A program made the translations under genes and the position numbers. 64,000 nt of DNA, from contig JBHGNT010000004.1 of NCBI GenBank assembly GCA_043228905.1, forward strand, positions 9,858,001 to 9,922,000, given 5' to 3'. The notes under the pieces were generated by a model, which did not search any database, was not told where the DNA came from, and was given only the letters and a program-made list of their open reading frames with translations. This DNA comes from Azolla caroliniana. Lineage: Eukaryota; Plantae; Polypodiophyta. Positions within the stretch are counted from its first letter, which is position 1. Every line of letters starts with the position of its first letter. Below are positions 3,401-63,651 of this stretch, piece after piece.

Positions 3401-5247
3401 AGTCATGATATGGCAATACTCGAACCCATGACCTTATGTTACATGGGTCGAGCTCTTGACCATTAGACTATTTGCTGTAATACAAAGGATATTATTTTCA
3501 TTTAAGTTTTACTATAGAAAATTGACATATATTCCAGATTTCTCTGGAACATTCTAGAAACTTCAGGAGTACTCCTGAGAAAAATATAAAAGGAGGTACA
3601 AGGAATTATTTCGAGCCAAATTGGTTCAACGCCAGTCTTAAGCCTCCTCCTAGCTACTATTGTATATTCTCTTAACATAATATATATCTTTTGTTATCAT
3701 CATTCTCTCTCTCGATCTCTCGATCTCACTCACTCTTTCCTTCTCTCGAGAGTTCTACACCTCCCTTAGTACTAATCCTCATCTTTTAGTACTAATTCTT
3801 TATGTGTCTTAGTACTGTTCTCTATCTTAGTACTGCTCCTGACAGTACTTCTCTTAGTACTGCTCCTGACAATTTGAACCGATTTTGCTCTCCTTCCTTC
3901 TCTTCCTTTATCTTCTTACTTCCCTCCCTTCATACTAATCTCTTATTAATCTTTTCTCTCATACTATGGCCATTGTTAGCGCTCAAGAATATCAATCCGT
4001 TTTTTAGGAGTTGCAATGCTTAAAAGAGAAGTTTCTGGCATTGGAACAAGAAAATCAACGACTATTGGGGGAGCTTCAACAAATCTCCTTAGAGAAGCAG
4101 CAGATGCAACAACAACACGGGGAACTAGCATTACACATGCAACAACTCGAAGCAACCATAGTAGCAATGCAACAACAAGGACCCAGTACGCAAGGGGTTC
4201 ATAAAGAACCCAAGATCGGTCTTCCCATGAAATTCGATGGAATGCGATCACAGTTTAGAAGATTCCTTAATCAAGTACGATTAGTCATTCAAATGCATCC
4301 TTCTCGAGATGCCACCAATGCATCACAAGGGGGTTTAGTAGGCACGTTGTTAAGTGGCTCAGCTTTGGTATGGTTCGCTCCATTGTTAGAAAAGGAATCT
4401 CCTTTACTAAACAATTTTGAAGAGTTTTTAAGTGAGTTTAAAGCTTGTTTTGGAGACACTGACAGCATAAGGACAACAATCAACAAAATCCAACGATTAC
4501 ATCAAGGTGATCGTCCAGCCTCCGCATACACTGCAGATTTTCACCTACTCGCCTCCAATATCCCCTGGGATGACCAAGCACTTATGGAGCAATTTCGTTA
4601 TGGTCTACATAACGATGTCAAGGATTTACTCTTGACCTTCCCCGAAGAACCAAAGTCATTGACAGAAGCAATCAGTCATGCGGTGAGATGCGACAATCGT
4701 CTTTTCGAACGACGTTCGGACCGTCAGTTCCAGATGCCAAGCGCAAGATCAGAGCTCACCTACGCCTCAGTGGTAGAAAAACCTTTTCCAAGGGAGTCAC
4801 ATAATGCGTCTCCAGTTAATACTCCAACTCCGATGGAAATTGACACTACACGTCGTCGCGGACCATTATCGGAAGAAGAAAAACAACAACGTCGAGCAAA
4901 TCGACTATGTCTTTATTGCAGTGGACTAGGGCATATTGCAGTGAACTGTCCCCATAGGCCAAGAAGATAGGTGAACCAAATAGTTGCTAGTCCTAATTGT
5001 ACTAAACCCAAGTCTATTTCAGTAGGAATATCTGATAGTCCTAATAGGACTAATAGTCCAAATCTATCAAACAAATTTGATGTCCTTAGTCAAATAGATG
5101 AAGAGTTAAACGATTAAGTCCAGCCAAAATAGGAGTCGTTTGGTTAGACAGCCCTAGATCTGTGCAGCTCATTAGTGGTTTCATTCCCTCTAAGCAAGTT
5201 AACAATGTGTTCTTAGCCCAAGTAACCGTTAGTACTAAAAGTACCTC
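3401..5247 (+). mobile_element. Family A chromovirus 5' half: LTR (3401-3871), PBS, gag (to 4970), start of pol
   Basis: LTR similar to 18128-18599 and 57720-58178. Gag has CCHC knuckle CLYCSGLGHIAVNC and a premature stop. The GTTAAAC frameshift cassette is retained at ~5105. Confidence 0.9.
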
Positions 5248-5253
5248 TAACCG

Positions 5254-6804
5254 TTAGTACAATTAGAACTAGCAATTATTTGGTTTACCTATCTTCTTGG
5301 CCTATGGGGACAATTTATTGTGATGTGTCCTGGTCCACCGCAGTAGAGACATAGTCGATTTGTTCGGCGTTGCTGCTTTTCTTCTTCGGATAATGGTCCT
5401 CGACGACGTGTAGTGTCAATCTCCATCGGAGTCGAAGTATTCACTGGAGGCACATTATAGTACTCCCCAGGTAAAGGTTTTGCTACCATTGAGGCGTAGG
5501 TGGGCTCTGATCTTGCCCTCGACATCTGTAGCTGTCGTTCCGAACGTCGCTCAAAGAGGCGGTTATCACATCTCACCGCACGATTGATTGCTTTTGTTAA
5601 GGACTTTGGCTCTTCAGGGAAAGTCAAGAGTAAATCCTTGACATCGTTGCGTAAACCATAACGAAATTGCTCCATCAACGCTTGATCATCCTAAGGGATG
5701 TCAGCGGCGAGTAGGCAGAAATCTGCAGCGTATGCGGAGGCTAGACGGTCTCCTTGGCGTAATCGCCGGATTTTGTTGATTGCGGTCCTTATGCTATCAG
5801 TATCCCCAAAGCATGCTTTAAACTCACCTATAAACTCTTCAAAGTTGTTGAGTAATGGAGACTCCTTTCCCAACAGTGGAGCGAACCATGCCAACGTTGA
5901 GCCACTTAATAGCGTCCCTACTAAACCCATTGGTGATGCATCGGTAGGATATCGGGAAGGATGCATTGAATAACTAATCGTACCTGATTAAGGAACCCTC
6001 TAAACTGCGATTGTGTTCCATCGAACTTCGTGGGAAGGCCAATCTTGGGTTCCTTATGAATCCCTTGTGTTCCGGGGCCTTGTTGTTGCATCGCTATGAT
6101 GGTTGCTTCGAGTTGTTGCATGCGTAATGCAAGTTCCCCATGTTTTTGTTGCATTTGCTGCTTTTCTAAGGAGATTTGTTGAAGATCCCCCAACAACCGT
6201 TGATTTTCTTGTTCCAAAGCAAGGAACTTCTCTTTCAAGCATTGAAACTCCGAGAAAACATATTGATATTCCCGAGCGCTAACTGTGGCCATGGGATGAA
6301 AAGAAAAGAAGAATAAGAGATTAGTATGAAGGTAGAGAGACAAAAGGGAAAATTGGTTCAAACTATCAGGAATAGTACTAAACAGAGAGAGAATTAGTAC
6401 TAGAGAAGGGAAGTACTATTAGAACTAAGAGGACGGGACTGCATAAGACTCCCAAGAGAGGAAGAGAGAAGAGGAGAGAGAGAGAGAGAGAGAGAGATAG
6501 AGAGAGAGATGATGATAACTGATTATATATTATAAGAAGAGTAAGTACAAAAGGTCTATGAGGCTAAAGACTGGCATTGAACCAATTTGGTTCAAGATAA
6601 TGCCTAGTGCCTCTTTTATAGTGTTCTCAGGAGTTATCTTGAAGCTTGTAGAATGTTCCAGAGAAATCTGGAATATACATTAATTTCCTATAATAAAATG
6701 TAAACAAAAATAATATCTTACGTATTACAATAGATGATATAATGGTCAGGAACTTGACCCATATAACCTAAGGTCATGGGTTCGAGTCTTGCCATATCAT
6801 GAGA
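5254..6804 (-). mobile_element. Family A chromovirus 5' half, inverted: LTR (6364-6804) and disrupted gag
   Basis: Minus-strand ORFs 5921-6361, 5691-5966 and 5289-5678 are successive gag pieces with a CCHC knuckle. The LTR is the reverse complement of family A. Confidence 0.9.
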
Positions 6805-13800: not shown

Positions 13801-14870
13801 AAGTATGCTTGACTTTAGATTGAGAGAGATTAAGATTGAACTCTTGACTTTACATTTGAAGAACAAGATTGATACATCAATTGGATATCAAATTTCTTAC
13901 TTTTAATTTCTTAATTAATACATCAATTGGATAACGAAATTTCTTCTTAATATTAATTTTGATATAAAGTACAAAGCTCCCTTTGATATTTTTCATCCAC
14001 CCTTTTATAGATGCTCCCATGCATATGATGCATGCAAGGGTACAAGACATGCATACAATACATGGAATGCATGTGATGCATGTTTGTCATTTGGCGCTCA
14101 TGCATCACATGTCACTCAATCGAGCTCTAATATGAGAATTTACATGTAAAGCTATAATGATAAAAATATAATCTCTAAAGAAATGACTTCGCTTAATGGT
14201 AAGCCTATTGTTTCCTATCTTGGAGGTGCAAAGTTTGAGTTTTGCTTACATCTTTTTCTTTTATGCACAAAATACTATTAGGCTTTTGGACCAAATATCT
14301 TTAAGACACCATGCACCGTGATCAACTGACCCGACGAATCCGTCCGATTTACATCTGTTTGGTCCGGCCCAGTCCGCATCCTGATTTCGTTTGGTCCTCA
14401 TCCCTAGTCGCTTGCCGGTAACCGGCCGGTCACTACTTGTCGATCGCTAGTTGCCGTCGGTTTTGGTTGGCTAAAATCTTTTACAAGTAGCTAGGCCACA
14501 CCTACTTATCCAACTAGCTTAGTTCAAGTCACCTTGAACTCTCTATGCTCCACACATAAACACAAAGATAATAGTTTTTGCTCTGCCTTATATATGGCGA
14601 GATCCTTATTTGTCCTATCTATGTGGGATATCTCACAGTTTTATCTTTCTCTTTTCCTTTGCAAACTTCCTACCCACATAACTTGAGACTTAGATGTCTG
14701 TTTCTTATGTAGTAAAGTGCATTCGAAAGCTCTTAAAGACCTCCATCTTTTTGTACTAAGATATTAAACTATTTTAAATAGTATTTTGACTATTATTGTT
14801 TTATATGATTCATACTTGATTTCGTATGTTTTATGCGATTTTCACACCATTGCAGAAAATCTTCACGACA

Positions 14871-17800: not shown

Positions 17801-18423
17801 TACATTCGGTGTTTCATAGTTCTCTCCTCGAACCCTATCAAGACAGCACCATGCCAGGTCGTATTAAACAACCTCGACCCCCTATTGAACTTGAAGATGG
17901 ACCTGAGTACGAGGTTGTCCCCATCCTCAATTCCAAGATTGTTCGCAACAAGCTGTACTATATAGTCTATTGGCTAGGATATAGTCCCAGCGAGCATACT
18001 TGGGAACCAATATAGAATGTCACCAATGCTCATGCTCTTCTTGAAGACTTCGATTGTGAATATCTAGACAAACCGGGTCCTCAATCCAAAACGATTCGTG
18101 ACACTCGTCGTTTTAAAAGGGGCATAGTTTCATGATATGGCAAGACTCGAACCCATGACCTTACGTTACATGGGTCGAGCTCTTGACCATTAGACTATTT
18201 GTTGTAATACAAAAAGTATTATTTTCATTCAAGTTTTACTATAGAAAATTGATGTATATTCCAAATTTCTCTAGAACATTCTAGAAACTTCAGGAGTACT
18301 CCTAAGAACACTATAAAAGGAGGCACAAAGCATTATTTCGAACCAAATCGGTTCAACACTAGTGTTAAGCCTCCTAGCTACTATTGTATATTCTCTTAAC
18401 ATAATATATATATTTTGTTATCA

Positions 18424-45870: not shown

Positions 45871-45974
45871 AAAATTTTGAACCATTTCTGAATTTGCGCA
45901 TGTCATTCTTGTGTAGGGGTCATCCTAATCTTCTTTGTATCATTCCAAGTTTCTTAGATGTTCCCAAAAGGGAT
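45871..45974 (-). ncRNA. U6: U6 snRNA pseudogene (full length, degenerate)
   Basis: Reverse complement aligns end to end with plant U6 (..GGAACATCT..TTGGAATGATACAAAGAAGATTAGGATGACCCCT..AAATGGTTCAAAATTTT). The ACAGAGA box is mutated to ACAAAGA and no USE/TATA is visible. Confidence 0.9.
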
Positions 45975-46772
45975 TTCTATTGTTGATTCTCTCTCTCTCT
46001 CTCTCTTGCTCTTCTTGTTTGTTTGACTCTCATCTTACTCTCATTGCCCACATCCCCATTCCGAAGGTTACACAAGCGTCAGCAAGTGCTCTCTCTCAAG
46101 TGACATCACTGAAAAACACTTGGCATTTGTTTTTTTTGTTTTACTTTTCTCTTTCTTTAATTCCCTCGATTCTTTTAAGCCATCTTCGGATTCTAGTATC
46201 GCGTTGCCAATCAACTCCCTCCCTCCCACACACACACACACACACACACACTCTCTCTCTCTCTCACGTGTATTGCATGAAATGTAATATTTTTGGTCCT
46301 CATAGGTCATATTTGACCATCGAAGACAAATAATAGAATCTATCTATCTATCTATCTATCTTTATTGGTTGGGCATCATAGTCTCATAGATTGTAATGAG
46401 TCTTCTCTTCTGGAGATTAATTAAAAAGATATCTTATCTATCTGTCAAGCATTTCCTTAGGTTTTAACAAACAATCTAGGAGAGAAAAGCAAAAAAGGTA
46501 GGGAGGGGGTGGGGGGGGGGGGGGGCATGGTATGGAAATACAGAAAACAGAGGGGCATTTTTGGTGGGCGATATAGATACATTTGTAGTAGTAGTAATAA
46601 AGAAAGGAGGTTTCTATTCTACTTACAAAGTTACATACATACTGCTGCTGCCTGCTCTGCAAGTAAGGCGGATCTACAGAAGGAGGAGGAGGAGGAGGAG
46701 GAGGAGGAGAAGGGAACAGAGCTCGCAAGCAAATCTTCTTCCACTTTGCCCTAAAAGCTTCGGAATTTCAGA

Positions 46773-49639
46773 ATGTCTCACATGGCTTGGAACGCTGTTG
46801 GGGAGGCTGCAACAGTAGTTCAGCTCACAGGCCTCGACTCCGTCAAGATAATTGCTTTGATCGTCAGCGCTGCCAACAATGCGAGGATGCACAAGAAGAA
46901 CTGCAAGCAGTTTGCGCAGCACTTGAAGCTCATCGGAAACCTCCTGCAGAGGCTCAAGATCTCTGAGCTCAGAGCATGGCCCGAGACACGTGAGCCTTTG
47001 GATCAACTCGATGATGCTCTCCGACGATCTTTCCTCCTCGTCAACAGCTGCAAAGACAAGAGCTATCTGTATTTGCTGGCGCTTGGGTGGTCCACTGTAG
47101 CTCAGTTTAAGGAATGCCAAGCAGAGATCGACAGGCTTCTTGGGCTCATTCCGTTGATTACTCTTGTGGAGCATAACAGGGTAAGCATTTACGAATGCAA
47201 CTCCTTTTTCTTTCCCCTTTTATTTTGTGTGATGTATGTATGTATGTATGTATGTATGTATGTATGTATGCATGCATGTTTTCTGTTTACTTTATATATC
47301 CCAGCATGTCTGGCTTCTTGTGTCAATGTGTAATCTGTGTGATTGAGGTTGTCAGAATAATGGTATGGCTCATTGGGAAATAGGTGCATTGGTCAAATGT
47401 GATGTTTTTTGTCCCTTTTATCCCCAGAGAAAATGATATAGAGACATCTTTTCTGTGTGAAGGAACGCTTACGAGCGATTGAAAACGATGAGCGAGTATA
47501 TACATTGGATGAGAAAGAACTCCAGGTGCATGAGGCGGTCCTGAAACCCAAGGTAGATGCAAAAGATGCGAAGTTTTTAGAGAGATCCTTGTCTAGGAGC
47601 TATCCAGGAATGGATATTTCCGAAATCATTAAGAAAGAGAAAAGGAAGCTAACAACAGAACTCCAACAAATGGAGCACTGTATGGAAATGGATAAGGTTG
47701 AGGTTATCCATCATCTGATAGATGTTACAGAAACTGTATTGCCTCAGAATCGAAGGTCTAAAGAGAAGACAAAACCTTCTAAGCATTCGGAACAAGCAAC
47801 GATGATGCAACCAGTGGAAGAGCAAATGGAAGAATGTGATGATGCCATTGATAACTGTTATTCTTCCCCTTCTCCAAGGTATTGCGTTTTCTTATTTGTA
47901 TGTTTAGTTTGGGCCTATCATTTTTCTTATTTGTATGTTTAGTTCTTATCTGAATGAGAATGACTGAACTTACTGGAGCTTTGGATGTTGGCTAAGATTG
48001 ATAATTAGGCGAGTAAATTTGGATGATCCATTGTCATGAACTTCAAATTGCATCTGCTTAAAAAAAAAGTGTTTGTATTCAGTCCTTATGTAATAATAAT
48101 GTAATTTTCACGGTCAACGATTTTCACGTCAGGAAAGAAAAAATATATGAATCTGGACAAACATCTGGGTTTCAGCTCATCGAGTTGCATTTGTGCCATA
48201 ATTTGAACCATAAAGTTTAAATATGAATGGAAAATATCTATGTTGGCTCCATGGAGAGTTTCGCTTCCTTCTATGAGCAATATTAATGACCTAAATTTTT
48301 TATTGACAAGAAGCAAAGACCTGTAATGAAGAGCTTTGTCATTACTTGATATCTAATCTTGAGTTGTGATAGGTGACTACAGGCATAATGGTGGCTCATT
48401 TTTATCTCCCGAAAAACATTCATCAGATGCTCAGCAAAGTTCAGGAACCGAGTCATGGCATAATAGTCTATCTGATTGCTGCACCGACCCATACTTATGT
48501 AAGTGATAATTGCTTGCCAAATAAGATTTTGTTTCTCATTCATATATGGTATGGATGCCACACAGAGTTGTTCATGTAGAAATGCTATCTTTTTAAGTGT
48601 TCCACAGAAAGCTGAAGACATCACTAGTTTTCAAGATGATTTATTATGAACGCCATTCATGAAGCTCTAGTTGGAGAATCTTGTGGAATAAATAGGCCAA
48701 GTTGGGAGTGAAACAGACTCTAGGAAAGTGGGTGCAGAGTCCTTAACCACTGTTAAAACCACATCTTGTTTTACCGTAAAAGTACTAATTTGGCGGTGGA
48801 AATGCAGTAAACATACTATATGCTTACAATAATGTAAATGAAAGAATTTGCTCTTTTGCTGTTTTCAGGTATATCAACTTGCATGTATCCATGTGGCACA
48901 TTCTCAGATGTAGCATCCTTTGCTTCAGATGGAAAAGTTTGTGAGTAAATATATAACCTCCATCCTATTGCTGACGCGTTTTGCTCGATCATTTTCTCAT
49001 AATGCTACGTCTTTCATTCAATCTCATCAATCAAAATCTGTATTTTTTTTTGTTGTCTTTCCATGGTGACAGCTCCTGAGGAGGCATGCAACAACCTTAT
49101 GACTTATACATTGATGCTCTGTTGTTTCTGTCACACTTGTTGTATCAGGCGTCAATTACGGAAACGATATAACATTGAAGTAAGAGAGGGCAAAACATTT
49201 AGCCTTTATAGAGGTTTTGATTATACATAAACGTACATAGGATATTGTATGATTTGATATAAGCATCGATTGAAGCATGAACACCATTCATGCCTTTTTT
49301 TGTTTGCTTGTCTCTCTAGGGGGATTGCTGCGAGGATTTGTGTGCTCACATGATGTGTTGCTGCTGTGCTCTTGTTCAAGAATGGCAGGAGATCCTAGCT
49401 CGTGATGAGAGTATGTGTTATGTTGTTATGTTAATGAAAGCTACAGAAGCACACAGGTGTATATGTATACATCATGTGGGTTTAAGTTGAAACATAGGTG
49501 TTTTCCAATTTGTGATTATACATGTCATTTCTTTTTTCTGTTAATCTTCTTTTGCCATTCAGTAATTCTTCTCTTTCTGATTGCAGACTTCAAGCTTAGC
49601 CCCCCTCCTACTCAATCAATGAAGAGAGAGGAAGAATGA
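46773..49639 (+). CDS. MCA1: MID1-complementing activity (MCA)/CNR13-type mechanosensitive Ca2+ channel, MCAfunc + PLAC8 domains; exons 46773-47180, 47463-47878, 48383-48498, 48869-48940, 49073-49179, 49320-49410, 49587-49639 (420 aa)
   Basis: N-terminus MSHMAWNAVGEAATVVQLTGLDSVKIIALIV..MHKKNCKQFAQHLKLIGNLL matches MCA1. Cys-rich PLAC8 C-terminus (WHNSLSDCC, CCCCALVQEW). GT-AG introns join in frame to 1263 nt. The exon-3 acceptor is the least certain. Confidence 0.95.
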
Positions 49640-49690: not shown

Positions 49691-49755
49691 GTGGGATTTG
49701 AACTCTTGACCTCTGACCTTTGACCGCAAGATCGTGAACTGCTAGGCCAACTCCC
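49691..49755 (-). other. tRNA-derived/SINE-head-like relic just after the MCA stop codon
   Basis: Minus strand gggagtTGGCCTAGCAGttc...gaggtcaaGAGTTCAAATCCcac has A-box- and B-box-like motifs at tRNA spacing. Confidence 0.45.
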
Positions 49756-57290: not shown

Positions 57291-57719
57291 GTCATCCTCC
57301 CCTTCTTCTAGCCCTAACTCCAAGACTTGTTCACACTAGGATACAAAGTGGAAGGAGTCAGCCTTTTATGCCAACATTTCGTTCCTGTCTATAGGCTCAT
57401 ATAGGTCGCTGACTATCAGAAGATCCTCCATCTTGATCATCTAGTCTAAGTAGTTATGTGGGTTCAGGACTATCATTCCTGGAAAGCCACTCAAACCTCC
57501 TTCCATCTAGCACCTCTAGCTCTAATACCAATTTTTTACGTTTAAGACTGAAGATGAACAAGAAATATAGGTTGAAAAACATAGAACAGAAACTTAAAGT
57601 ACATGGCACACAAAATTTACGTGGAAACCCTAAAACAAGGAAAACCACGGGCAACAAATTTCACTAGGAGACAAGATTACAGAGATAGATTACAAATTTT
57701 TTCAAGCTTTCAAGGAGAA
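57291..57719 (-). mobile_element. Copia gag start, PBS and U5 part of a 5' LTR (the host site of the intact gypsy; the LTR continues after 63489)
   Basis: Minus PBS TGGTATTAGAGC at 57519-57530; gag MEGGLSGFPGMIVLNPHNY..KMEDLL; cccgtggtttt LTR motif. Confidence 0.75.
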
Positions 57720-57842
57720 TGTCATAACTAGACTCGAACCCATAACCTTTTGTTACACGGGTCGAGACTTTACCATTAGGTTATGAATTGTAATTTGAAG
57801 GATATTATTTTCATTTAGGTTTTATTGGGAAATTGATGTATA

Positions 57843-57902
57843 TTCCAGATTTCTCTGGAACATTCTAGAAACTTCAGGAGTATTCCTGAAGACACTATAA
57901 AA
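57843..57902 (+). promoter_or_regulatory. Extended heat-shock element followed by TATA box in LTR (second copy at 63149-63208)
   Basis: TTC/GAA triplets every 5 bp from 57843 to 57890 (7 of 10 perfect); TATAAAA at 57896. Confidence 0.85.
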
Positions 57903-58009
57903 GGAGGCGCAAGGCATTAGTTCGAACCAAATCGGTTCAACGCCAGTCTTAAGCCTTCTAACTACTGTTGTATATCTTCCTTCATATAATACATATATCT
58001 TTCGCATCA

Positions 58010-58045
<36 letters not shown>

Positions 58046-58180
58046 ACTCATTCCTTCTCTCAAAGTTCGACACCTCTCATAGTACTAATCCTTCTCTGTC
58101 TTAGTACTATTCCCCAACAATAGTACTAATCCTTCTTTTAGTACTAATTCCTTCTCTGCCTTAATAGAGTTCCTGACAGT

Positions 58181-58192
58181 TTGAACCGATTT
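58181..58192 (+). promoter_or_regulatory. Self-priming primer-binding site
   Basis: TTGAACCGATTT is the exact reverse complement of AAATCGGTTCAA (57929-57940), which lies 33 nt after the TATA; no TGG tRNA-type PBS is present. Confidence 0.88.
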
Positions 58193-58279
58193 CTGGGTGC
58201 CTGTCTGGTCTTTTCTCTCCCTCTTCCTTCTGTCTCCCTCCTTTCCTACTAGTCTCTTATTTCCCTTTTCCTTCATCCC

Positions 58280-59449
58280 ATGGCCACCGTTAGCGCTGAA
58301 GAGTATCAATCCGTTTTCTCGGAATTTCAATGCTTGAAAGAGAAGTTTCATGCTTTGGAACAAGAAAATCAACGCTTGTTGGGGGATCTTCAGCAAATTT
58401 CCTTAGAAAAGCAGCAAACGCAACAACAGCATGGGGAACTTGCGTTACGCGTGCAACAACTCGAAGCAACCATCGTAGCAATGCAACAACAAGGGCACGG
58501 AGCACAAGGGATTCATAAAGAACCCAAGATTGGCCTTCCCACGAAGTTCGATGGAACGCGATCGCAGTTTAGAGGGTTTCTTAACCAGGTACGGTTAGTT
58601 ATTCAAATGCATCCGTCCCGATATCCCACCGATGCATCACGAGTGGGTTTAGTAGGCACGTTGTTAAATGGCTCAGCATTAGCATGGTTCGCTCCGCTAC
58701 TAGAAAAGGAATCTCCAGTACTAAATAATTTTGAAGAATTCATAAGTGAGTTTAAAGCATGTTTTGGAGATACTGACAGCATAAGGACTGCAATCAACAA
58801 AATCCGGCGATTACGCCAAGGTGACCGTCCAGCCTCCGCATATGCTGCAGATTTCCGCCTACTCGCCGCTGATATCCCCTGGGATGATCAAGCATTGATG
58901 GAGCAGTTCCGCTATGGTCTACGCAACGATGTCAAGGATTTACTCTTGACTTTCCCTGAAGAGCCAAAATCATTAACAGAAGCAATCAGTCGAGCGGTCA
59001 GATGTGACAACCGCCTCTTCGAGCGACATTCGGAACGACAATTTCAGATGCCGAGGGCAAGATCCGAGCCTACCTATGCCTCAGTGGTAGCAAAACCTTT
59101 TCAAAGGGAGTCACATAATGCGCCTCCAGTAAGTACTCCAACTCCAATGGAAATTGACACTACACGTCGTCGTGGGCCGCTATCGGAGGAGGAAAAGCAA
59201 CGACGCCGAACAAACCGATTATGCCTTTATTGCGGTGGACCAGGGCATATCGCGATAAACTGTCCCCATAGACCAAGAAGGCAGGTAAACCAAGTCGTTG
59301 TTAGTTCTGACTATACTAAACCCGAGTCTATTTCAGTAGGAATCTCTGATAGTCCTCATAGTCATAATAGTCCTAATAGTACTAATAGTCCGAATCTCGC
59401 AAACAAATTTGATGTCCTTAGCCAATTAGAAGAAGAGTTAAACGACTAA
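58280..59449 (+). CDS. gag: Gag (389 aa): N-terminal coiled coil, capsid, CCHC zinc knuckle
   Basis: TPMEID motif, CLYCGGPGHIAINC; open frame. Confidence 0.95.
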   Translation: MATVSAEEYQSVFSEFQCLKEKFHALEQENQRLLGDLQQISLEKQQTQQQHGELALRVQQLEATIVAMQQQGHGAQGIHKEPKIGLPTKFDGTRSQFRGFLNQVRLVIQMHPSRYPTDASRVGLVGTLLNGSALAWFAPLLEKESPVLNNFEEFISEFKACFGDTDSIRTAINKIRRLRQGDRPASAYAADFRLLAADIPWDDQALMEQFRYGLRNDVKDLLLTFPEEPKSLTEAISRAVRCDNRLFERHSERQFQMPRARSEPTYASVVAKPFQRESHNAPPVSTPTPMEIDTTRRRGPLSEEEKQRRRTNRLCLYCGGPGHIAINCPHRPRRQVNQVVVSSDYTKPESISVGISDSPHSHNSPNSTNSPNLANKFDVLSQLEEELND

Positions 59450-62400
59450 GTCCAGCCAAAATAGGAGCCGTTTGGTTGGACATCCCTAGATCTGTGCAGC
59501 CCATTAGTGGTTCCATTCCCTCTAAGCAAGTTAGTGATGTGTTCGTAGCCCAAGTAGCAGTTAGTACAAAAAGTACCCCTCCAGTACATACCTTAGCCCT
59601 TCTAGATTCCGGAGCTAATTCTTGCTTCATGGATAGGAATTTTGCCCGAGCTCATCAGATATCTCTCAGAAAGCTCCCATGTCCAGCCTCAGTAGTAGTC
59701 ATTGATGGTCGTCCCATTGCTTCTGGTAATATCATAGAAGAGTCGGAACCCGTTAATATTGTCCTAGATAACTTAACATGTGTAGTATCATTTAATATTA
59801 TTAGTATTCCAGAACATCCCATAGTTTTAGGATTACCATGGTTCGAGTTACATAACCCAGACATAGATTGGAGGACAAGGGAAATCCGGTTGCGACAAAC
59901 CCAAGGATCTACCCAGAAGGTTGCAACCATTTCGCTACGTCAGTTGCGTGAGGAAGGGCGCAAGGAGGAAATGTTTCTCTTCGCAATATCAGTACAACCC
60001 TCCAACACCACCAAAGAGGAGTCCACCGTTCAACTTCCCGAGAAGTATCGTCAGTATGCTGATGTGTTCGATAAAGTACAAGCCAACACACTTCCTCATC
60101 ATCGGCCGTACGATTGCGCCATCGACTTACAACCGGGAAAAGAGCCGCCATGGGGGCCGATCTACAATTTGTCACCAACCGAGCTAGAAGTCCTTCGAGC
60201 CTATATAGAGGAGAATTTGGAGAATGGTTTCATTCGGCATTCGAAATCTCCAGCCGGCGCACCCATTTTCTTCGTCAAGAAAAAAGATGGCTCGCTTCGA
60301 CTCGTTGTAGATTACCGTGGCTTGAATAAGGTCACAGTAAGAAATAGGTATGCTCTTCCCCTTATCTCAAGTCTTTTAGAACGGATCAACGGTGCCAGGT
60401 TCTTCACGAAGATCGACTTACGAGGAGCCTATAACCTCGTACGGATCCGACCAGGAGATGAATGGAAGACCGCGTTTCGCACCAGATATGGGCACTTCGA
60501 GTATACGGTCATGCCGTTCGGACTCACTAATGCGCCGGCAGTCTTCCAGCACATGGCGAATGATATATTTCGAGATCTCTTGGATGATTTTTTGATCATC
60601 TATTTGGATGATCTACTGGTTTATTCAAAGACCCAAGAAGAACATGATTCTCATGTACTATTAGTACTAAAACGACTTCGAGAACATGGTCTGTATGCAA
60701 AGTTAGAGAAATGTAGTTTCGGGTGCAACCAAGTGGAATTTCTCGGCTATGTCATCTCCTCAGAAGGCATATCTATGGACCCAGCCAAGGTCAAAACGGT
60801 GATAGAATGGCACACTCCGCGTTCGGTGCGGGATGTGCAATGCTTCCTAGGCTTTGCAAATTTTTACCGGAAGTTCATACAAAATTACTCAAAAATTGTG
60901 CTGCCTCTCACACAGCTCACCAGGAAGGGACAATCATTCATTTGGTCTAAAGAGACGGACATGGCTTTCGAGAGTCTTAAGAAGGCGTTTACATCAGCTC
61001 CAATTTTAGGTCATGTGGATCCGGAAAAACCATTCATTATCGAAGCTGACGCATCGGATTTCGCATTGGGGAGCATTCTGTCACAACAGGGTAACGACGA
61101 GAAGCTACATCCTGTGGCTTTCCACTCCCGTAAGTTTGACGCCGCCGAAATCAACTACGAAATTCATGATAAAGAGCTATTAGCAATAGTTGATTCTTTT
61201 ATGCAATGGAGGCATTTCCTGGAGGGATCTCCTCATCAGGTCACTGTATTCAGTGACCACAAGAACCTTGCCTACTTTCAAGATGCTCGTGTACTGAATC
61301 GACGTCAAGCTCGGTGGGCCCACTTCCTCACACGCTTCGACTTCAAAATTACATATCGTCCGGGGAAGCACCAAGGGAAGGCAGATGCATTATCACGGCG
61401 TTCGTATCTAACACCACGTCCCGGTGAGCCAGCTTTCGATAACCAGAAGCAAGTAATCTTGGGTCCAGCACGACTGCAAGCAGCACAGGTCTTTGACATG
61501 CCCGTGGATTCCGACATTACCAATACTATACGTGAGGACTTGAAGACTGACGCTTTCGCCCAAGCTATACTAGCACAAATTGACCCCTCTCGAGCGTCAT
61601 GTTCACAATCACAATCACCAGGTACGGATTATCGGCAATTCAAATACTGTGATGGATTACTCTTCTTTAAAGAACTTTTGTATGTTCCTAATGGTTCTTG
61701 CCGCCTTCGAGTAGTACAAAATTGCCATGACACATATACAGCAGGACATTTTGGTAGTACTAAAACATTAGATTTAGTACAACGATCATTCTGGTGGCCC
61801 CGTATGCGACAATTTGTCGAAGATTTTGTTCGGGCTTGCGATACATGCTGCAGAGCGAAAATGCCAAGACATCATCCATATGGTTTATTAGAACCATTAC
61901 CAATTCCAAGCAAGCCATGGCAATCCATTGCTCTTGACTTCATTACAGATCTTCCAGTCTCTAAGGGATTCAGTGCGATTCTCACAGTGGTGGATCGATA
62001 TACGAAGATGGCTCATTTCTTACCCTGTACTAAAGAAATATCTAGTGAAGACACCGCCGAAATTGTCATGCGGGAAGTATGTCGGCATCATGGACTCCCT
62101 GATAATATCATCAGCGATCGTGGACCCCAGTTTGTGTCAAAATTCTGGAAGCACCTTTTTAAAATGCTGAAGGTCACTTGTAACCTCTCCTCCGGCTACC
62201 ACCCACAAACCGACGGTCAAGCCGAACGAACAAATCAAACACTGGAGCAGTATCTGCGGTGCTTTCTCAACTATCATCAGAATGACTGGGCAGATATTCT
62301 TCAGTTCGCCGAATTTGCCTATAATAACGCTATCCACGCATCGACTAAAGTCACGCCATTCTACGCTTATACGGGATATCATCCCCGGTGGTGTGTCCTT

Positions 62401-63033
62401 GAAACCCCAGAAGTGTCCACAAATCCTTGCGCGGAGGATCGTTTGGAGCGGTTACGCAAGATACAAGCGGATTTATCTACTCAACTCCAGCAAGCTCAAC
62501 AATCACACAAGGACTACGCAGATCGTCATCGACTTCCATCCAGTTTTAACATTGGAGATCGGGTGTGGCTGCTACGACGACACATCAAGACTACTCGCCC
62601 ATGTGAGAAGTTGGATTATCGGCGATTAGGTCCTTTCCGTATTATCGGGAAGATTAATGATGTCGCTTTTCGTCTCGAGCTACCTCCGCAACTTCGGATA
62701 CATCCGGTGTTTCATAGTTCTCTCCTCGAACCCTATCACGAGAGCACTATCCCAGGACGTACTATACAACCACCACCTCCTATCGAGCTCGAAGATGGAC
62801 CTGAGTATGAGGTCGCTGCCATCCTCGATTCCAAGATTGTTCGCAACAAGCTCTACTATCTAGTCGATTGGCTAGGATATAGTCCCAGCGAGCGTACTTG
62901 GGAACCGATCGAGAATGTGACCAATGCTCGTGCTCTTCTAGAAGACTTCCATCGACGATATCCCGAGAAACCGGGTCCTCAATCCAAAACGACTCGTGGA
63001 ACTCGTCGTTTTAAAGGGGGAATAGTGTCATAA
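59422..63033 (+). CDS. pol: Pol in the -1 frame (protease, RT, RNase H, integrase, GPY/F, chromodomain); probably expressed by -1 frameshift
   Basis: LLDSGA, YLDDL, EADASD, HDTYTAGH..CDTC, ISDRGPQF, LGPF, EYEVAAILDS..YLVDWLGY..TWEP. The frame is open from 59422 and overlaps the end of gag. Confidence 0.96.
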   Translation, partial: PIRRRVKRLSPAKIGAVWLDIPRSVQPISGSIPSKQVSDVFVAQVAVSTKSTPPVHTLALLDSGANSCFMDRNFARAHQISLRKLPCPASVVVIDGRPIASGNIIEESEPVNIVLDNLTCVVSFNIISIPEHPIVLGLPWFELHNPDIDWRTREIRLRQTQGSTQKVATISLRQLREEGRKEEMFLFAISVQPSNTTKEESTVQLPEKYRQYADVFDKVQANTLPHHRPYDCAIDLQPGKEPPWGPIYNLSPTELEVLRAYIEENLENGFIRHSKSPAGAPIFFVKKKDGSLRLVVDYRGLNKVTVRNRYALPLISSLLERINGARFFTKIDLRGAYNLVRIRPGDEWKTAFRTRYGHFEYTVMPFGLTNAPAVFQHMANDIFRDLLDDFLIIYLDDLLVYSKTQEEHDSHVLLVLKRLREHGLYAKLEKCSFGCNQVEFLGYVISSEGISMDPAKVKTVIEWHTPRSVRDVQCFLGFANFYRKFIQNYSKIVLPLTQLTRKGQSFIWSKETDMAFESLKKAFTSAPILGHVDPEKPFIIEADASDFALGSILSQQGNDEKLHPVAFHSRKFDAAEINYEIHDKELLAIVDSFMQWRHFLEGSPHQVTVFSDHKNLAYFQDARVLNRRQARWAHFLTRFDFKITYRPGKHQGKADALSRRSYLTPRPGEPAFDNQKQVILGPARLQAAQVFDMPVDSDITNTIREDLKTDAFAQAILAQIDPSRASCSQSQSPGTDYRQFKYCDGLLFFKELLYVPNGSCRLRVVQNCHDTYTAGHFGSTKTLDLVQRSFWWPRMRQFVEDFVRACDTCCRAKMPRHHPYGLLEPLPIPSKPWQSIALDFITDLPVSKGFSAILTVVDRYTKMAHFLPCTKEISSEDTAEIVMREVCRHHGLPDNIISDRGPQFVSKFWKHLFKMLKVTCNLSSGYHPQTDGQAERTNQTLEQYLRCFLNYHQNDWADILQFAEFAYNNAIHASTKVTPFYAYTGYHPRWCVLETPEVSTNPCAEDRLERLRKIQADLSTQLQQAQQSHKDYADRHRLPSSFNIGDRVWLLRRHIKTTRPCEKLDYRRLGPFRIIGKINDVAFRLELPPQLRIHPVFHSSLLEPYHESTIPGRTIQPPPPIELEDGPEYEVAAILDSKIVRNKLYYLVDWLGYSPSERTWEPIENVTNARALLEDFHRRYPEKPGPQSKTTRGTRRFKGGIVS

Positions 63034-63315
63034 CTAGACTCGAACCCATAACCTTTTGTTACACGGGTCGAGACTTTACCATTAGGTTATGAATTGTAAT
63101 TTGAAGGATATTATTTTCATTTAGGTTTTATTGGGAAATTGATGTATATTCCAGATTTCTCTGGAACATTCTAGAAACTTCAGGAGTATTCCTGAAGACA
63201 CTATAAAAGGAGGCGCAAGGCATTAGTTCGAACCAAATCGGTTCAACGCCAGTCTTAAGCCTTCTAACTACTGTTGTATATCTTCCTTCATATAATACAT
63301 ATATCTTTCGCATCA

Positions 63316-63351
<36 letters not shown>

Positions 63352-63651
63352 ACTCATTCCTTCTCTCAAAGTTCGACACCTCTCATAGTACTAATCCTTC
63401 TCTGTCTTAGTACTATTCCCCAACAATAGTACTAATCCTTCTTTTAGTACTAATTCCTTCTCTGCCTTAATAGAGTTCCTGACAGAGAAAGGCTCAGATT
63501 ACAGAAAATCCCTTCGTAGGGTTTTGGCAAGTTCCACAAAATTGTGCCGTCGCTCACTTTCTCTTCTACCTTTTGTAGCTTTTGAGTGACACAATAATAA
63601 TCATACATAATCATCTTTCCCTAATTCCATATATATAAGGTATTACTATTA

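Follow-up and report, generated by a model that had tools for sequence, protein, structure and literature searches.

A conserved antisense tRNA-type promoter module in the LTRs of self-primed Tcn1-like chromoviruses

Seven LTRs in the window, as we call the whole 64,000-nucleotide stretch of DNA analyzed here, carry near their start a module that reads, antisense to the element, like the internal promoter of a tRNA gene. An A box, a B box and tRNA-like spacing, features of a type 2 Pol III promoter, are all present, and comparison with related elements indicates that the module is under selection throughout the clade. We hypothesize that this conserved antisense A/B skeleton of autonomous self-primed chromoviruses functions at the DNA level, where TFIIIC bound to it at the LTR edge would help to keep the Pol II promoter open, and we give this model about an even chance of being right. 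Judged by its letters, the module is likely to bind TFIIIC; a barrier role and transcription by Pol III we only infer. Taken as a whole, the first-pass annotation of this DNA, which had proposed an outward-facing Pol III promoter derived from a tRNA gene body, is partly supported.

E1 and the module copies of the window

In element E1 both gag and pol are open, the two LTRs are identical (459 nt each), and the TSD is of 5 bp (GAGAA at 57715-57719 and 63485-63489). The features of E1 are as follows.

57720..63484 (+): E1, an intact self-primed Ty3/gypsy chromovirus, Tcn1-like
57720..58178 (+): 5' LTR, TG...CA
57730..57783 (-): antisense tRNA-type promoter module in the U3 of the 5' LTR; 28.8 bits, spacer 32
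57773..57783 (-): A box (tRNA positions 8-19), letters TAACCTAATGG
57745..57748 (-): AGGT (tRNA positions 44-47), outside the scored part
57730..57740 (-): B box (tRNA positions 52-62), ending 10 nt from the LTR edge
57896..57902 (+): TATA box for Pol II in the LTR, oriented opposite to the module and 113 nt behind its A box
57929..57940 (+): predicted self-primer at the start of R; all 12 nt are complementary to 58181-58192
58181..58192 (+): primer-binding site that pairs with E1's own R rather than with the 3' end of a tRNA
58253..59449 (+): gag, a frame of 398 aa counted from stop to stop
59422..63033 (+): pol frame, 1203 aa, with protease, RT, RNase H, integrase, SH3 and chromodomain; its end lies inside the 3' LTR
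63013..63025 (+): polypurine tract
63026..63484 (+): 3' LTR
63036..63089 (-): second module, pointing into the polypurine tract and pol

The domain order of pol, PR-RT-RH-INT followed by a C-terminal chromodomain (at about 62806-62958), is that of Ty3/gypsy and bears out the identification of these elements as chromoviruses. Priming without a tRNA, which had also been proposed, agrees with the 12-nt self-primer, which starts about 30 nt after the TATA box. At 63013-63033 of the window, pol is read across the polypurine tract and stops within the first codons of the LTR, and many relatives have the same C-terminus. This shared read-through implies that the polypurine tract and the att site are coding too.

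We gathered 102 tRNAs from unrelated loci (fungal-like, bacterial and phage), 93 of which could be anchored and were turned into A-box and B-box matrices; spacers of 31-34 nt received a bonus of 2 bits. With this 93-tRNA matrix, the seven LTR heads rank 1-5, 7 and 8 among the 127,904 positions of the window (both strands), at 22.4-30.3 bits compared with a median of 32 for the 102 collected tRNAs, and each outscored 60 of 60 dinucleotide shuffles. The spacer between the two boxes is 32-33 nt in the seven heads, the mode of real tRNAs. All seven A/B-box sites claimed earlier are thus confirmed, and they run antisense to their elements. In the copy at 57724-57790 the A box is TAACCTAATGG, which is a variant of the string given earlier for family A. 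The copies outside E1 are the following.

18143..18197 (-): family A 3' LTR; 30.3 bits, the best site of the window
3416..3470 (-): family A 5' LTR; 22.4 bits, with C61 of the B box changed
6735..6789 (+): family A 5' LTR of a minus-strand element; 23.2 bits
2528..2581 (-): family A' 5' LTR (2495-2866); 23.8 bits
8688..8742 (+): family B 3' LTR (8772-8400, minus-strand element); 24.9 bits

Four further LTR-like repeats of the window gave -4 to 5 bits on the tRNA-box matrix. As for the outward orientation of the module, it applies to the 5' LTR only, whereas the copy in the 3' LTR points into the polypurine tract and the end of pol.

The term tRNA gene body suits the A and B boxes and their spacing, but not the structure. 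ARAGORN in its default setting called 0 tRNA genes in the window; at relaxed thresholds it made hundreds of calls across the window, and these were therefore left unused. The covariance-model check that had been suggested was negative, as neither the window nor three 100-nt stretches of LTR heads matched the Rfam tRNA model at E<=10. Pairing in the T, anticodon and acceptor stems of the module did not exceed that of shuffled partners, pairing in the D stem was marginal (p 0.02-0.04), and the 17 family representatives described below have no anticodon in common and no 15-48 pair. Since no cloverleaf is left, the module is better described as a promoter skeleton than as a tRNA. No single parent tRNA could be assigned to it from a comparison set without the host's own tRNAs.

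Other sites were observed in the window. Rank 6 is held by an A/B module at 49694-49749 (-; 23.4 bits), which has the AGGT in place, lies outside any recognizable LTR and had no similarity to the fetched loci; it is possibly a SINE head or a tRNA relic. A degenerate module at 14189-14242 (+; 12.1 bits, AGGT correctly placed) could form the head of a decayed eighth LTR on the minus strand (about 14272-13801), which would abut the truncated family B 5' LTR. A full-length, diverged copy of the U6 snRNA at 45871-45975 (-; 72 bits), probably a pseudogene, lies near the MCA gene of the host, whose MCAfunc exon (46755-47333) shows 84-85% identity to Ceratopteris and Adiantum proteins and 70-76% identity to the listed seed-plant and lycophyte proteins, which makes a fern the likely host.

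Distribution and conservation among related elements

Relatives were collected by a protein-based scan that was blind to the motif and yielded 78 metagenome loci (36-94% identity), and 26 more distant loci were added. Of these 104 loci, 71 gave LTR heads of at least 80 nt, which were scored, a head of at least 11 bits being counted as positive. The rest comprised 4 with heads shorter than 80 nt and 29 that lacked a chromodomain hit or a callable LTR start, among them 4 removed by hand as miscalled. The module was intact in 25 of 35 heads of related elements from ERZ-series assemblies and in 0 of 36 outgroup heads, where the best score was 6.3. Every positive head beat 60 of 60 shuffles, and the orientation was antisense in 31 of 31 positives. 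Their sense strands scored low, with the single exception of L033 at 11.8, as did the control stretches (maximum 0.6 in the next 150 nt and 2.8 in the upstream 150 nt). When both strands of all 104 loci were scanned, 7 sites of at least 15 bits appeared in 316,371 outgroup bases, and only two of these, both in L017, were located in an LTR; 11 further loci had no site of at least 14 bits.

A quick IQ-TREE run with 73 rows placed 28 positives in two clades (SH-aLRT 99 and 100) that are joined at 81, with 10 negatives nested within the positive clades and all 35 outside rows negative. One origin of the module is compatible with the tree, which allows it rather than shows it. The in-clade negatives (10 of 35) are degraded, deleted or cut, and several retain recognizable remnants; in L044 the contig ends inside the A box. 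L040, L042 and L054 lack an intact module despite contig coverages of 160, 53 and 49, which argues that the module is not essential. Every positive head belongs to one of 14 assemblies in a single id series, likely from one host lineage, so that clade and host are confounded. Family A LTRs were matched by hundreds to thousands of contigs in sequencing runs labelled organisms A to E.

Several side observations were made among the collected loci. L038 and L039 are identical across 221 pol residues and have clearly different LTR heads, possibly an assembly chimera. A decayed look-alike of a tRNA gene, presumably tRNA-Pro, lies in host DNA beside an element (L088:2399-2452, -). The genome G001 (L103, L104 and L120-L134), filed as bacterial, includes both chromovirus contigs and eukaryote-type tRNA genes and thus likely carries fungal DNA as contamination. 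In the A' subclade, the linker between protease and RT contains another antisense tRNA-like module, which is in frame and adds about 25-30 codons (L029:2953-3005 and L028:6334-6386, both on the minus strand, and also near L028:1000; proteins P0002, P0138, P0139, P0143 and P0147); its B-box codons are kept in the variants seen.

The 30 positives with a spacer of at most 35 nt were reduced to 17 representatives below 80% identity, L053 (spacer 44) being left out. Invariant in 17 of 17 are TGG (positions 17-19; 57773-57775 in E1), AGGT (44-47), T55, C56 and A58, while T8, G53 and T54 are kept in 16. The spacer measures 32 or 33 nt in every representative, and the distance from the module to the LTR edge varies from 10 to 64 nt. 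AGGT is a common word in eukaryotic tRNAs and lies outside the textbook A and B boxes. This unscored word is present in 29 of 30 modules, as against 12 of 91 training tRNAs, a mostly prokaryotic set.

We compared the module with silent sites in pol. Between clades (55 pairs, 16 representatives with pol), identity is 0.28 at fourfold-degenerate sites, 0.28 in the middle of the spacer, 0.66 in the boxes and 1.0 in AGGT; within clades, the corresponding values are 0.42, 0.36, 0.72 and 1.0. Between clades, silent sites and spacer are thus saturated, and that the boxes and AGGT are kept against this background is not expected of a neutral relic. These values agree with the earlier observation that the boxes persist where the LTRs barely align, and BLAST gave the same picture: family B had no alignment to E1, and its alignment to A' was limited to 19 nt at the module and a single piece of 30 nt (E 0.05). 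The boxes served as the selection criterion for positives, which inflates their conservation; AGGT did not, nor did the spacer length apart from its 2-bit bonus.

Two further patterns were observed. The G columns contain a single G>A in 150 cells, and this near-absence indicates that changes tolerated by G-U pairing are not accepted. Within family A, contigs of three sequencing runs that are probably DNA were examined. Variation of at least 3% was seen at none of the 11 B-box and none of the 3 TGG positions, compared with 9 of the 29 spacer positions and 4 of the 8 that make up the 5' half of the A box. Fisher's test against the spacer gave p 0.065, in a comparison weakened by the fact that the family A B box abuts the invariant LTR end. 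The looseness of the A-box 5' half is seen in A14>G, which reaches 7-21% of depth in two runs. One putative RNA run, which gave 2 low-depth unstranded contigs, was excluded from the analysis.

These results bear on the idea that the module is a passenger, an old and functionless tRNA or SINE insertion carried along. The linker module of the A' subclade tells us that such captures happen, and the 10 degraded, deleted or cut heads among 35 would fit this idea. The boxes and AGGT, however, have persisted at fixed spacing while silent sites and spacer have drifted to chance level; on this comparison the passenger reading is already largely refuted, and we consider it highly improbable.

Candidate functions of the module

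The letters that have been kept match a type 2 Pol III promoter. Together with fixed spacing, no RNA stems and no tolerance of G>A, they point to DNA that is read by a protein, most simply TFIIIC. In our model, an ancestor would have captured a tRNA or the head of a tRNA-derived SINE, either through an antisense SINE insertion or because plus-strand synthesis, just past the polypurine tract, switched template to a packaged tRNA; the latter would account for the antisense orientation of the module. TFIIIC would contact both boxes, back to back with the Pol II TATA box. The aromatic-cage chromodomain likely directs the element into heterochromatin or methylated chromatin, and TFIIIC bound at the LTR edge may there protect the element's promoter, as a barrier or by clearing nucleosomes. 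In yeasts, TFIIIC sites without Pol III act as boundaries or barriers (PMC3395662, in its available text).

Across families, about 95-200 nt separate the A box from the sense TATA box behind it, and this interval includes an AT-rich stretch. TFIIIB would sit at -40 to -21 from T8, where the AT content is 0.81. Plant tRNA genes carry TATA and CAA upstream (PMC3082873, in its available text); upstream of the module, neither CAA (5 of 15, p 0.25) nor TATA-like words (12 of 15, p 0.12) exceeded shuffles. A downstream T-run terminator is not conserved, as T4 occurs inside the LTR in 6 of 17 representatives and at no fixed distance; the predicted start and the first T4, where there is one, are 61-401 nt apart. 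Because of the missing terminator and the unenriched CAA and TATA, binding has more support than a defined Pol III transcript.

The same data weigh on the view that the module is a working Pol III promoter and that antisense RNA is its function. From the 3' LTR, this RNA would run across the polypurine tract into pol, tuning copy number or seeding small RNAs, and from the 5' LTR it would run into flanking DNA. Such a promoter would fit the kept boxes, tRNA spacing and AT-rich leader, a first T4 at 61-401 nt where one is found, and a rod-like hairpin in families A and B (z -2.6 to -4.6). The lack of a conserved terminator and of CAA or TATA above shuffles argues against it, and so does the fold, which is not shared: the mean z over 17 families is -1.1 for the antisense and -1.2 for the sense strand, and native-versus-cross pairing on the antisense strand gave p 0.08. 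No conserved RNA fold emerged from 306 folding windows, none of which had a z below -3, the fold being strong in A and B and missing in about half of the families. We regard this view as unlikely.

Quite unlikely, in our judgment, is a role in the sense genomic RNA just after the polypurine tract, where the module would anneal to the D, variable and T loops of a host tRNA or form a hairpin for strand transfer or packaging. The conserved letters do correspond to tRNA loop positions, the D stem pairs at p 0.02-0.04, and native left/right pairing on the sense strand slightly exceeds cross pairing (p 0.017, in a window picked after viewing the folds). There is also a parallel in Ty3, where the T and D arms of the primer tRNA anneal to U3, the 3' half of a bipartite PBS (PMC5371799, in its available text). 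The present elements are self-primed, however, and their stem positions 49-51 vary among families (identity 0.40-0.48), which speaks against a contiguous match to any single tRNA. Changes that wobble pairing would tolerate are nearly absent, and the hairpin is missing in half of the families.

Conservation peaks on TGGT, AGGT and GGTT, and since the invariant AGGT lies outside the textbook boxes, another factor or an RNA contact may be involved. The module could be tRNA-derived and yet be read by a different DNA-binding factor, through three GGT words at fixed distances, as a Pol II enhancer or as a contact for the integration complex. This we consider improbable, as the TFIIIC letters T8, A14, C56, A58 and C61 are kept as well, at exact tRNA spacing.

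Returning to the TFIIIC model, the coding elements described here keep a Pol II promoter and a predicted Pol III promoter back to back, under clear selection. The module offers a concrete, mutable cis-element for the open question of how chromoviruses in silent chromatin stay transcribable, and its invariant AGGT points to a contact beyond the textbook A and B boxes. If TFIIIC is bound, these LTRs would supply a plant genome with a large number of TFIIIC sites. A wider version of the model, which we put forward tentatively and think rather doubtful, is that the LTRs of an autonomous, heterochromatin-seeking clade have each been equipped with a TFIIIC/Pol III barrier from a time before silent sites were saturated. 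Insertions and solo LTRs would then be mobile insulators, fern genomes with these elements would contain thousands of extra TFIIIC sites, and tRNA-type modules in the U3 of chromoviruses may represent a recurring anti-silencing device.

Comparison with known systems

By their features (domain order, chromodomain and self-priming), the elements are Tcn1-like, probably of the Tcn1 clade of Tf1/Sushi chromoviruses; our tree covers the collected loci. The chromodomains of E1 and its close relatives keep Y, W and Y, which we take to be the aromatic-cage residues. The self-priming arrangement was also seen by eye in families A, A' and B, and a script found an R/PBS complement of 10-12 nt in 8 of 30 heads, many of which lack an LTR end. 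Self-priming and an aromatic-cage chromodomain mark the Tcn1 clade among plant chromoviruses, according to the available text of PMC6317226. Our elements resemble that clade, as far as the available parts of PMC6317226 and PMC2864245 (Novikova 2010) describe it, in domain order, aromatic cage, length (about 5.7 kb), LTRs of 440-460 nt, 5-bp TSD, self-priming and a non-seed plant host; the Tcn1 hosts given in the available text of Neumann 2019 (PMC6317226) are moss and club-moss only. They differ in the module, since these parts of the two papers say nothing of tRNA-like or Pol III sequences in LTRs, and the outgroup relatives fetched here, unlike the E1 clade, do not carry it.

A search of the open literature, with most subscription journals and the Repbase notes outside it, returned no description of an antisense A/B module in the U3 of autonomous chromoviruses. 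A distant element, L017 (37% pol identity), which by its features we take to be Tekay/Del-like Ty3/gypsy, carries two sense A/B modules in U3, upstream of TATA:

4834-4889 of L017 (+): first module, 36.8 bits
5002-5055 of L017 (+): second module, 24.5 bits

The first reaches 19.3 bits on the Rfam tRNA model, below the cut-off, and five relatives of L017 have no such modules. This one case fits a DNA role that is free of orientation, and suggests that chromoviruses captured such modules repeatedly.

The bipartite PBS of Ty3 (PMC5371799, in its available text) offers a likeness, as U3 is complementary to the T and D arms of a tRNA at the 3' end of the RNA. Ty3, however, needs its primer tRNA, whereas the elements here are self-primed and keep only the universal loop letters, probably with no contiguous match.

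The first-pass annotation had named Cassandra as a precedent. Like the module, the Cassandra and Ajax TRIMs have a Pol III promoter captured in the LTR and long conserved, but theirs is of the 5S rRNA type (A, IE, C), in sense orientation and in non-autonomous elements (PMC10886601, in its available text). Helenus/TRIMp3 (Kojima 2024, PMC10886601) is the closer precedent: there too, in the text available, the LTR contains tRNA-derived sequence in which the A and B boxes are conserved but no functional tRNA is present, and one Helenus family is known from a lycophyte. Helenus elements are non-autonomous, 311-1263 bp long and tRNA-primed, with the boxes in sense orientation in the supplement LTRs and proposed as the element's own promoter. 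The elements described here, in contrast, are autonomous, of 5.8 kb and self-primed, keep a Pol II TATA box and have the boxes antisense in U3. The available text of the same paper reports tRNA-like parts in many Repbase LTRs, with only TRIMs analyzed, and argues that autonomous elements must use Pol II and that Pol III promoters in TRIM LTRs drive the element itself.

Finally, the yeast ETC/COC sites and tDNA barriers (PMC3395662 and PMC2040200, in their available text) are B-box TFIIIC sites that form chromatin boundaries, often between divergent promoters; for the module such binding is predicted. The yeast ETC/COC sites are host loci with a B box extended on its 3' side (PMC3395662, in its available text), whereas here the AGGT lies 5' of the B box, the A box is kept and the site is mobile.
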